Source: Escherichia coli
Lineage (GTDB): Bacteria > Pseudomonadota > Gammaproteobacteria > Enterobacterales > Enterobacteriaceae
DNA length: 64,000 nucleotides
Reading direction: 5' to 3' (one strand)
Assembly (NCBI RefSeq): GCF_003334255.1
Contig: NZ_QOWU01000015.1
Within the stretch, counting starts at the first letter, position 1. Every line of letters begins with the position of its first letter. Positions 10,780 to 12,357 of this stretch are shown piece by piece. A model generated the notes under the pieces. That model ran no database searches, was not told the origin of the DNA, and saw only the letters and a program-made list of their open reading frames with translations. Position numbers and translations under genes: made by a program.

Positions 10780-11556
10780 ATGTCCGAAACAAAAAACGAA
10801 CTTGAAGACCTGCTGGAAAAAGCAGCAACTGAACCGGCGCACCGCCCGGCCTTTTTCCGTACTCTACTGGAATCCACCGTCTGGGTGCCTGGTACGGCGG
10901 CGCAGGGCGAGGCTGTGGTTGAAGATAGCGCGCTTGATTTACAGCACTGGGAAAAAGAAGACGGCACCAGCGTCATTCCTTTTTTCACCTCGTTAGAAGC
11001 ACTTCAACAGGCGGTTGAAGACGAACAGGCATTTGTCGTAATGCCCGTTCGCACGCTGTTTGAGATGACACTTGGCGAAACGCTCTTCCTTAATGCCAAA
11101 CTGCCAACCGGTAAAGAATTTATGTCGCGTGAAATCAGTTTGTTGATTGGTGAAGAGGGAAATCCGCTGAGCAGCCAGGAAATCCTGGAAGGCGGTGAAT
11201 CGCTGATATTATCGGAAGTCGCAGAGCCGCCAGCACAAATGATTGATTCACTCACCACCTTATTTAAAACCATTAAGCCGGTGAAGCGTGCTTTTATTTG
11301 TTCAATTAAAGAGAACGAAGAGGCACAGCCTAATTTACTTATTGGCATTGAAGCCGATGGTGATATCGAAGAAATTATTCAGGCGACGGGAAGTGTAGCG
11401 ACCGATACATTACCTGGCGATGAACCAATCGATATTTGTCAGGTGAAAAAAGGGGAAAAAGGAATTAGCCACTTTATTACCGAACATATTGCGCCATTCT
11501 ATGAACGTCGCTGGGGTGGTTTTTTGCGTGACTTTAAACAGAATCGGATAATCTAA
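10780..11556 (+). CDS. sseB: SseB (enhanced serine sensitivity protein)
   Basis: 258 aa from ATG 10780 (MSETKNELEDLL). Confidence 0.9.
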   Translation: MSETKNELEDLLEKAATEPAHRPAFFRTLLESTVWVPGTAAQGEAVVEDSALDLQHWEKEDGTSVIPFFTSLEALQQAVEDEQAFVVMPVRTLFEMTLGETLFLNAKLPTGKEFMSREISLLIGEEGNPLSSQEILEGGESLILSEVAEPPAQMIDSLTTLFKTIKPVKRAFICSIKENEEAQPNLLIGIEADGDIEEIIQATGSVATDTLPGDEPIDICQVKKGEKGISHFITEHIAPFYERRWGGFLRDFKQNRII

Positions 11557-11559
11557 AAT

Positions 11560-11580
11560 ATGCCGCCCAAAGGGCGGCAT
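11560..11580. terminator. Stem-loop after sseB; also the candidate 3' end of the minus-strand ryfA-like transcript
   Basis: atgccgccc-aaa-gggcggcat is a perfect 9-bp stem. On the minus strand it is followed by atatttta; the U-tract is weak. Confidence 0.5.
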
Positions 11581-11736
11581 TCGGGCTTACTTGCTGCTCT
11601 GAAGGTTGTTAACCACCAGTAAATTGTCGCCGGAGAGACTCCGGTTATTATTTACCTCGGTTAACAGCGCACCAGAAACAATAAGTACGATACAAAAGCA
11701 CCGTATCTTCATTGTGCGGTCCATGCGAAGACCGCA

Positions 11737-11811
11737 TCACGACAGCACCACTGGCGATATTGCCGCGATAGCAAGCGCTGTGAAACACCTGCATTTACGG
11801 CCACGGAACAT
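11737..11811 (-). CDS. Candidate 24-aa small hydrophobic protein (MFRGRKCRCFTALAIAAISPVVLS), TimP/type-I-toxin-like
   Basis: ATG at 11809-11811 with SD aggaaagg 2 nt upstream; basic N-terminus followed by a 14-residue hydrophobic stretch; an upstream anti-SD (ccctttcc) can pair with the SD. Below the 60-aa cutoff of the ORF track. Confidence 0.3.
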   Translation of the reverse strand: MFRGRKCRCFTALAIAAISPVVLS

Positions 11812-11900
11812 CCTTTCCTAAAGCCAGCGCCCGTTTGCGAGACGGCGGAAAGGGCCGCAGTGGATAATACACTAACAGAACAATAATAACTCTCTTTTGC

Positions 11901-11929
11901 TTGACAAAAAGAGAGTTACTGGCGAGTAT
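11901..11929 (+). promoter_or_regulatory. Sigma70-like promoter inside a palindrome (copy 1)
   Basis: Consensus -35 TTGACA at 11901-11906, 17-nt spacer, -10 GAGTAT at 11924-11929. The -35 sits in the loop of the palindrome ctctcttttg/caaaaagagag and overlaps the minus-strand TTGTCA. Confidence 0.45.
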
Positions 11930-11935
11930 TGTCTC

Positions 11936-12032
11936 CGCTGAGACGCGCTTGCATTACTACGGTAATACAACCTGCTGGAAAGGCCGCGAACCGGACCAGC
12001 AACAAAAAACCGCCTGATTTTGGCGGTTTTTT
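11936..12032 (+). ncRNA. Candidate ~100-nt sRNA (TimR-like), copy 1
   Basis: Runs from the predicted TSS to an intrinsic terminator (ccgcc-tgatttt-ggcgg + T6, 12009-12032). Contains ggaaaggccgc, complementary (with one bulge) to the 5' UTR of the minus-strand small-ORF transcript. Confidence 0.4.
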
Positions 12033-12222
12033 GTTTTTTAAAGGAAAGTGAATTTACATGTTTAAGTAATATCTTTTACCGGTTAGAATTTTTAATTTTG
12101 AGCAGGATTTGTTTATATTTGTCTGAATTCAGACTAATAAGCCAGGTTATTTTATTACCGAACACGGCGGAAAGGGCCGGTGTCGATAATACGCTAAATA
12201 AACAATAATTACTCTCTTTTGC

Positions 12223-12251
12223 TTGACAAAAAGAGAGTTACTGGTGAGTAT
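12223..12251 (+). promoter_or_regulatory. Sigma70-like promoter, copy 2
   Basis: Identical TTGACA (12223-12228), 17-nt spacer and GAGTAT (12246-12251), in the same palindrome context as copy 1. Confidence 0.4.
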
Positions 12252-12257
12252 TGTTTT

Positions 12258-12357
12258 GCTGTGAAGCACCTGCGTTGCTCATGTAACACAAGTCAACCTG
12301 CTGGAAAGGCCGCGAACCAGACTAGCAATAAAAAACCGCCAAATTCGGCGGTTTTTT
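12258..12357 (+). ncRNA. Candidate ~100-nt sRNA, copy 2 (sibling of 11936-12032)
   Basis: Same promoter; diverged 5' half; conserved 3' block cctgctggaaaggccgcgaacc; terminator stem ccgcc/ggcgg preserved although the loop differs (aaattc vs tgatttt). Confidence 0.4.

Follow-up and report, generated by a model that had tools for sequence, protein, structure and literature searches.

The question raised by this locus is whether a short hydrophobic reading frame, preceded by a purine-rich motif that can be masked by base pairing, represents a toxin gene of its own. The frame (MFRGRKCRCFTALAIAAISPVVLS) appears in the ORF listing of a 64,000-nucleotide stretch of Escherichia coli DNA (contig NZ_QOWU01000015.1; 'the window'), where it lies on the minus strand at positions 11737–11811, with an ATG at 11811–11809, 24 sense codons and a TGA at 11739–11737. 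An SD-like motif, AGGAAAGG, occupies positions 11819–11812, immediately 5' of the ATG at 11811, while CCCUUUCC, at 11854–11847 and 35 nt upstream, is complementary to GGAAAGG. The first-pass annotation of the window described the frame and its adjacent SD-like motif, regarded the frame as unannotated and proposed that it resembles a type I toxin. The description of the sequence is accurate, and the frame is indeed without annotation in the RefSeq record of K-12 and in the other E. coli records that we inspected.

The frame lies within the leader of the timP mRNA

The transcript that contains the frame is RyfA, as had been supposed. A 304-nt RNA at 11555–11858 (minus strand) matches Rfam family RF00126 with a score of 314.9 bits (gathering score 80, E = 8.9e-88) over the full length of the model (positions 1–296 of 296), and K-12 ryfA (b4440) maps to the same interval. 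Its length also agrees with the estimate of about 305 nt, counted to the hairpin at 11560–11580 (minus strand), from which the identity with RyfA had been argued; this hairpin is the intrinsic terminator of the timP mRNA as well as the 3' hairpin of the Rfam model. RyfA, formerly considered an 'sRNA', is the timP mRNA, and the region examined here is its 5' untranslated leader, located between sseA and sseB. The antitoxin sRNA gene timR (K-12 b4811), with an A-type seed, maps to 12258–12357 (plus strand), and the 5' end of TimR (GCUGUGAAGCACCUGCGUU) is complementary to stem-loop SL2 of the leader. [quoted passage not shown]

That RyfA codes for the toxin TimP, as the first-pass annotation stated for Salmonella, also holds here: a timP reading frame is annotated inside RyfA. 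The timP coding sequence (11587–11712, minus strand; timP in RefSeq, b4812 in K-12) specifies a 41-residue product (MKIRCFCIVLIVSGALLTEVNNNRSLSGDNLLVVNNLQSSK) that scores 86.8 bits against NCBIfam NF040796 (toxic_TimP; cutoff 45). Its AUG, at Rfam position 147 (window 11712), stands at +145 of RyfA in Salmonella numbering and directly 3' of SL4, the stem-loop that sequesters the SD of timP. Mapped from this point, Salmonella +1 is window position 11856; Rfam position 1 is window position 11858, and the 24-codon frame occupies Rfam positions 48–122. An ATG and an intact timP frame are present in all 24 orthologues that were aligned (described below), in which timP has a pN/pS of 0.53 overall and of 0.36 for the N-terminal 20 codons.

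The TimP orthologue is a separate, downstream and annotated 41-codon frame, and not the 24-codon frame; the letters had been read correctly, and the toxin assigned to the wrong reading frame. Published work on the family points the same way. RNAcode, applied to the Rfam alignment, predicted the TimP frame and no other (PMC7667032), and in Salmonella a mutated TimP start codon removes all toxicity of ryfA overexpression (PMC7667032). It is likewise to TimP, and not to the 24-codon frame, that TimR has been tied by experiment (PMC7667032, PMC11228461; Salmonella). A further study still treats TimP production by E. coli as an open question (PMC13188913). The main value of the present analysis is a correction: RyfA of E. 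coli already has a known, annotated toxin gene (timP, b4812).

Sequence properties of the 24-codon frame

In the window allele the frame specifies a peptide whose N-terminus is basic and which contains a hydrophobic run of about 15 residues, one of them proline. Orthologous translations gain charged residues or a second proline (ALVFTEISPVVLT in Rahnella, VLAITPLSPVVLS in Superficieibacter). The shortness of this run was not counted against a membrane toxin, since published type I toxins reach down to 18 amino acids and TimP's own hydrophobic segment is similar in length to that of the 24-residue peptide.

Comparison of the 24-residue peptide with TimP gave no match to NCBIfam NF040796 even at E ≤ 10, and no family was matched either by this peptide or by the 31-residue product of an overlapping frame that begins with GTG. 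The exact 24-residue peptide was not found among approximately 15 billion predicted proteins, a collection in which TimP is encoded on thousands of contigs.

All three sense frames are open over this part of the leader, giving ORFs of 24, 31 and 48 codons. When the 304-nt RNA was shuffled with its dinucleotide composition preserved, an ATG-initiated ORF of at least 24 codons arose in 62% of shuffles, and by itself the 24-codon frame is no more than is expected by chance. The combination of an ATG-initiated ORF with an upstream SD-like 4-mer arose in 6.7% of such shuffles. The presence of this combination in the leader is explained by the fact that GGAAAGG is fixed as the 3' arm of a conserved stem.

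The SD-like motif and its complement form the base of a conserved stem-loop

Leaders were collected for comparison by scanning contigs with a permissive pattern describing SL4 (GCGGTCNNNGCANNGACCGCAC), which matched at least 120 loci and yielded at least 14 true ryfA homologues, none of them from Salmonella, among the matches listed; most of those listed matches, in phyla unrelated to these hosts, were GC-rich hairpins that fit the pattern by chance. TimP protein clusters, and the contigs that encode their members, supplied Salmonella and additional alleles, and a false match in Erwinia dacicola L116 was removed from the set. The alignment comprises 24 intact leaders, each of 149–151 nt: seven E. 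coli alleles, Escherichia sp. E1V33, E. whittamii, four Salmonella, three Citrobacter, Superficieibacter, four Rahnella, two Yersinia and one Erwinia. Because this set was partly chosen by the SL4 pattern, very divergent loci are unsampled; the invariance of SL4 in the alignment is in part an artefact, both the search pattern and the extraction regex having required it.

The GGAAAGG of the SD-like motif (11812–11818, minus strand; Rfam positions 41–47) is the 3' arm of the lower SL1 stem, and the CCUUUCC taken for its anti-SD (11847–11853, minus strand; Rfam positions 6–12) is the 5' arm, in both the Rfam structure and the minimum free energy (MFE) fold. The pairing of ccctttcc with ggaaagg that had been predicted from the sequence is therefore present in the MFE fold of the leader and in the Rfam consensus, and it recurs in the 24 orthologues, where this helix is 96.4% paired and two of its seven pairs have changed on both sides (for example from U-A to C-G in Salmonella). 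SL1 alone folds at −17.8 kcal/mol.

Beyond the lower SL1 stem, the 24-codon frame overlies further structural elements of the leader (all on the minus strand). Approximately codons 6–14 (11772–11795) cover SL2 (11791–11772; Rfam positions 68–87) together with the TimR-binding site, as judged by the repeat of the TimR 5' end and by the position of the Salmonella site; on the plus strand, positions 11777–11795 repeat the sequence of the TimR 5' end (direct-repeat family D3), and the computed energy of the SL2–TimR duplex is −45.3 kcal/mol. SL3 follows at 11736–11769 (Rfam positions 90–123). Its loop, GCCAGUG (11749–11755), supplies the codons S-P-V of the frame and is at the same time the 3' arm of a pseudoknot whose 5' arm is CGCUGGC (11823–11829) in upper SL1; the pseudoknot joins bases within the 24-codon frame to bases that lie beyond it. 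The UGA of the frame sits at the base of the SL3 stem, and the stop position is kept as part of that stem. SL4 (11716–11735; Rfam positions 124–143), the hairpin that sequesters the timP SD (PMC11228461), comes next.

Across the 24 leaders, 97.5% of the 984 pair cells in the leader helices hold standard pairs, compared with at most 48.8% once the helix partners are slid by 1–3 columns as a control, and none of 500 column shuffles reached the observed pairing or covariation score. The pseudoknot helix is 99.4% paired, with compensatory changes at four of its seven pairs. The C-terminal 'ISPVVL' of the peptide seems conserved because it is conserved as RNA.

The initiation context of the 24-codon frame appears poor in these predictions. 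GGAAAGG is unpaired with a probability of 0.09–0.30, depending on the length of RNA folded, while the AUG itself is mostly unpaired (probability 0.81–0.92). The best pairing to the 3' end of 16S rRNA is formed by AAGGA, whose final base is the A of the AUG, and an alternative pairing through AGGA leaves a spacer of 4 nt. Both spacings are below the optimum for an E. coli SD, and the motif would accordingly be not only buried but also badly placed.

Pairing is conserved across relatives and the reading frame is not

An ATG is found at the start of the 24-codon frame in 16 of the 24 aligned leaders, and an ATG followed by the full 24 codons in 13; the start codon is missing in eight leaders and the frame is shortened in three more. 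Without regard to the start codon, the frame is open over 24 codons to the same UGA in 21/24 leaders, some of which have no ATG. Those with the ATG are Escherichia, C. freundii, Superficieibacter, the four Rahnella species and a rare Salmonella allele. In the dominant S. enterica allele (TimP cluster member P0109, on at least 1,000 contigs) the corresponding codon is ATA in 5/5 contexts, and it is ATA also in S. salamae, ACA and TCG in two of the three sampled Citrobacter, AGT in Yersinia and AAT in Erwinia. The Rfam consensus at this position, 'GGAua', agrees with the non-ATG codons.

Within E. coli, alleles were tallied with exact 43-mers spanning the start of the frame in 5,426 complete genomes. 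The A type, to which the window and K-12 belong, has 24 codons and was found in 1,968 genomes. The B allele, which reads ATG TTC CGC GAC CGT TAG, was found in 1,093 genomes, all identical to the query, and the B' allele, in which the same frame is followed by AGC, in 1,805. In both of these a TAG at codon 6 leaves an ORF of five codons, so that 2,898 of the 5,426 complete genomes (53.4%) carry the shortened form. A further 350 genomes have the O157:H7 type, with 24 codons and the motif weakened to GGAAAGA; the leaders of about 210 genomes were unclassified, and an L135-type leader allele had no match among the complete E. coli genomes.

The pattern of substitution also suggests that the 24-residue peptide is not under purifying selection. 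Variable columns at codon positions 1, 2 and 3 of the frame number 17, 18 and 13, so that variation is lowest at third positions, the reverse of what a coding sequence would show. The summed pairwise pN/pS of the frame is 1.30, the highest of the three frames (the others being 0.63 and 0.75) and at the 97th percentile of a column-shuffle null with a mean of 0.84. The first-pass annotation had named conservation of RNA structure alone, with no conservation of the ORF, as an outcome that would count against a coding role; in the alignment the helices are kept (97.5% paired) and the ORF is not.

A probably fortuitous frame over the timP leader

We believe the best explanation of these observations, to which we assign a probability of roughly 0.87, is that the 24-codon ORF is a fortuitous frame laid over structurally conserved leader elements of the known timP/TimR locus. 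The mechanistic experiments on timP all come from Salmonella. There, timP is no longer translated when the lower part of SL1 is destabilized and is translated again once a compensatory mutation is introduced, and a 7-bp pseudoknot between SL1 and SL3 is likewise essential (PMC11228461). SL2 is the TimR site, the timP mRNA undergoes no enzymatic processing, and 5' truncations inactivate rather than activate it, the truncated forms being inactive and unstable (PMC11228461). Judging by the shared structure, the 'lower part of SL1' in that study probably corresponds to the CCUUUCC/GGAAAGG helix, and by analogy the Salmonella mechanism would hold for this E. coli allele as well.

On this explanation the frame would simply open right after the 3' arm of lower SL1 (GGAAAGG), cross SL2 and SL3, and stop at the UGA at the SL3 base. 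GGAAAGG and CCUUUCC would be the base of SL1 and not an off-switch for the 24-codon frame. SL1 would, as in Salmonella, scaffold the SL1–SL3 pseudoknot, which would let ribosomes initiate at the timP start sequestered by SL4, and TimR bound at SL2 would disrupt the pseudoknot. The ORF, the 'SD', the complementary segment and the hydrophobic appearance of the translation are then by-products of conserved RNA helices. More generally, a GC-rich structured leader can mimic a type I toxin gene in each of these four respects, with an ORF, a purine-rich 'SD', a segment complementary to it and a hydrophobic translation.

We infer that the 24-codon frame yields no functional peptide, although occasional translation may occur in ATG-bearing alleles such as that of the window. 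The profiling supplement of Stringer et al. has no entry for ryfA, timP, these coordinates or either peptide, which is a weak negative. A 30-residue ORF in Shigella ryfA1, which is a candidate only for equivalence to the +1 frame discussed below, gave no signal as a GFP translational fusion (Fris et al., PMC5333039).

Alternative readings of the upstream frames

The first-pass annotation had proposed an independent, hydrophobic, type-I-like toxin whose SD is freed by mRNA processing. Such a reading draws on the basic N-terminus and the hydrophobic stretch of some 15 residues, on a length within the published type I toxin range of 18–51 residues (PMC7667032), on the pairing of the SD-like motif, and on the predicted duplex between an antisense-type sRNA, TimR, and bases within the ORF. 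We nevertheless consider it very unlikely that the 24-codon frame encodes a toxin, since the peptide matches no family and is missing from the protein collection, most lineages and 53% of E. coli genomes have lost either its start or its frame, it shows no purifying selection (pN/pS 1.30), and where its 'hydrophobic' codons have changed, bases beyond the ORF have changed along with them. The occlusion that was proposed does exist, as a paired helix, whereas the processing that was to relieve it does not in Salmonella, where the timP mRNA is unprocessed and 5' truncations are inactive (PMC11228461). Any cut that removed the anti-SD would also remove SL1, and the antitoxin in question has been tied experimentally to TimP. 

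A regulatory upstream ORF, in which the peptide is irrelevant, is a second alternative, and we regard it as improbable. Ribosomes would occasionally start at 11811 when SL1 breathes and thereby modulate timP translation: they would melt SL2 and SL3, terminate at the UGA, which precedes the timP AUG by 25 nt, and either open SL4, in a coupling like that of mok/hok, or destroy the pseudoknot and compete with TimR. The geometry is suitable, in that the stop (11737–11739) abuts SL4 (11716–11735) and the ORF covers the TimR site and one pseudoknot arm; the ATG is also found in distant genera, 21/24 leaders keep the frame open as far as this UGA, and a pN/pS of 1.30 fits a role in which the act of translation alone matters. 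Such coupling would call for a conserved start as well as a conserved stop, and only the stop is kept, the start being absent in 8/24 leaders and the frame cut short in three more. In 53% of E. coli genomes the frame ends at codon 6, before SL2, and a start codon is lacking from the dominant Salmonella allele and from two Citrobacter, Yersinia and Erwinia, so that a uORF function is no general feature of timPR. Moreover, translation of Salmonella timP in a purified system needs no uORF (the mutated AUG being that at +53) and depends on intact SL1 and the pseudoknot (PMC11228461), and in the E. coli leader the SD is buried and badly spaced. A narrower form of the same idea, and if anything a less probable one, confines it to E. 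coli with the A allele (K-12 type), where low-level translation of the 24-codon frame would be an allele-specific, TimR-competing tuning of TimP. If this were true, the B and B' alleles, with their stop at codon 6, and Salmonella, which lacks the AUG, would be without such a route of tuning, the uORF would be a polymorphic regulatory add-on to a structural-switch toxin leader, and its allele-specific modulation of a pseudoknot-dependent leader would amount to a small refinement of the timPR model and not to a new kind of system.

The functional upstream ORF of the leader could instead be the overlapping +1 frame, a 31-codon ORF at 11709–11804 (minus strand) that begins with GTG at 11804 in the window and with ATG in many alleles, and whose start aligns with the AUG of the Salmonella uORF at +53. 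ATG is frequent at this position (Salmonella, Citrobacter, Superficieibacter and several E. coli alleles), the frame has a pN/pS of 0.63, and a deletion in E. albertii fuses it to the body of TimP, where it has been called as a 63-residue protein. Yet a pN/pS of 0.63 is not unusual, 15% of shuffles being as low; the length of the frame varies from 8 to 31 codons among taxa; and GCG or ACG stands in place of the start codon in the E. coli B alleles, Yersinia, Erwinia and two Rahnella. When this start was changed from AUG to AAG in Salmonella, timP translation in vitro was unaffected (PMC11228461), and the Shigella ryfA1 ORF that is possibly equivalent to it gave no GFP signal (PMC5333039). With its pN/pS non-significant, its length unconserved and the Salmonella mutation without effect, we rejected the +1 frame as a real uORF and hold a function for it to be hardly credible.

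Comparison with Salmonella timP and other type I loci

The locus in the window corresponds closely to the timP/TimR system of Salmonella (Andresen et al. 2020, PMC7667032; Eleftheraki & Holmqvist 2024, PMC11228461). The two share the sseA–sseB locus, RF00126 and NF040796, the length of the 5' UTR, the four stem-loops SL1–SL4, the covarying 7-bp SL1–SL3 pseudoknot, and a divergently encoded TimR with a 5' end complementary to SL2. They differ in the length of TimP, which is 41 residues in E. coli and 38 in Salmonella, and in two positions of the leader: at +46 the window has ATG where the dominant Salmonella allele has ATA, and at +53 it has GTG where Salmonella has AUG. The ATG at +46 gives the window a 24-codon ORF that most of its relatives are without.

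The putative uORF of Salmonella ('CCAUGGCC...UAG') has its AUG at +53 to +55 and its stop at +77 to +79, and was considered for a mok/hok-like coupling and found dispensable (PMC11228461). Like the 24-codon frame it lies in the same leader and overlaps the TimR site, but it is in another frame, starts 7 nt downstream, aligns with the GTG at 11804 and not with the ATG at 11811, and has eight codons in SL1344-type Salmonella. The M1 mutation (AUG to AAG) hit +53 in that other frame and is therefore no direct test of the 24-codon frame.

The loci hok/mok/sok and tisB/istR-1 resemble timP in producing small toxin mRNAs with a structured leader, a sequestered SD and an antisense sRNA. In both of them an occluded ribosome-binding site is activated by processing, whereas timP is activated by a structural switch, the pseudoknot, with no processing. 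The SD that is sequestered in timP is its own, in SL4, and the SL1 helix is required for translation and is not inhibitory. K-12-type strains differ further from the Salmonella system in carrying an extra, duplicated TimR/promoter unit and the IS128 RNA.

A second TimR-like gene and a tandem duplication upstream of timP

Directly upstream of the type I toxin gene timP, we identified a second TimR-like gene (11937–12035, plus strand) and compared it with the annotated antitoxin gene timR (12258–12357, plus strand). The proximal gene, which has no annotation in the K-12 RefSeq record, shares the −35 and −10 elements of timR and is followed by a terminator of its own. Its 5′ seed, GCUGAGACGCGCUUGCAUU, is of the ‘B type’: the TimR-binding stem-loop (SL2) that it matches belongs to the B-allele timP of other E. 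coli, with a perfect match over 16 nt in SK1144. Pairing with the window's own A-type SL2 is weaker for this gene than for the annotated distal TimR (−36.3 versus −45.3 kcal/mol).

The region spanning 11842–12357 contains a tandem duplication of ∼322 bp (repeat families D1 and D2, with 90% and 84% identity between repeats, respectively). Besides TimR and the divergent promoter region, the duplicated unit includes the initial ∼17 nt of ryfA. The IS128 RNA (11990–12198, minus strand; Rfam RF00125, 260 bits) begins at the second ryfA-type promoter and carries SL1 in truncated form. From there it extends through unique AT-rich sequence to the proximal TimR terminator, read from its reverse side, where it ends. 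In Nissle-type strains, timP is driven by the IS128-type promoter sequence, suggesting that the repeats have undergone unequal recombination.

Allelic variation in the timP leader

Comparison of five E. coli loci (L141, L142, L143, L146 and L147) with positions 11772–11800 of the window showed that the species is polymorphic for both SL2 of timP and the TimR seed, which occur as matched allele pairs. Among 5,426 E. coli genomes, 1,968 carry the A allele, 1,093 the B allele, 1,805 the B′ allele and 350 the O157:H7-type allele; outside SL2, the leader is nearly invariant in this species. The matched pairs look like a diversification of toxin/antitoxin specificity, and recall the distinction between RyfA1/RyfB1 and RyfA2 in Shigella. 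From Escherichia to Erwinia, the length of the 5′ UTR is almost fixed (149–151 nt in an alignment of 24 intact leaders from six genera), despite a mean column divergence of 13%.

Within Salmonella enterica (L123/L124 compared with L136–L140), an ATG at +46, and with it the 24-codon frame proposed in the first-pass annotation, is present in a rare allele (TimP P0100, 2 contigs); the corresponding codon in the dominant allele is ATA. The TAG at +77 that terminates the published +53 uORF is also polymorphic, being found in L137 and L138 and not in L136, L139 or L140.

An in-frame ATG located four codons before the annotated timP start (11713–11724, minus strand; within the loop and 3′ arm of SL4) would extend the product to 45 aa (MDRT-MKIRC...). 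Older E. coli records list this 45-aa TimP, which was the version used in a UPEC study (PMC8205139); RefSeq now lists 41 aa.

Rearranged timP loci in other species

In three separate genera, SL2 is directly preceded by, and fused to, TimR in reverse complement (L129/L130 in E. marmotae, L059 in C. amalonaticus and L112 in Y. aleksiciae). Both promoters and SL1 are lost, with the TimP ORF still intact. The TimR seed and SL2 form direct repeats, and recombination between these would be expected to yield such a fusion.

A different rearrangement was observed in E. albertii (L131/L132, locus positions about 1200–1392), where a ∼26-nt deletion has taken out the start codon of timP together with most of SL4. 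As a result, the leader ORF of the +1 frame (MTVNAGTPQ...) continues in frame into the body of TimP, and the 63-aa fusion product is called a ‘hypothetical protein’ (P0031).
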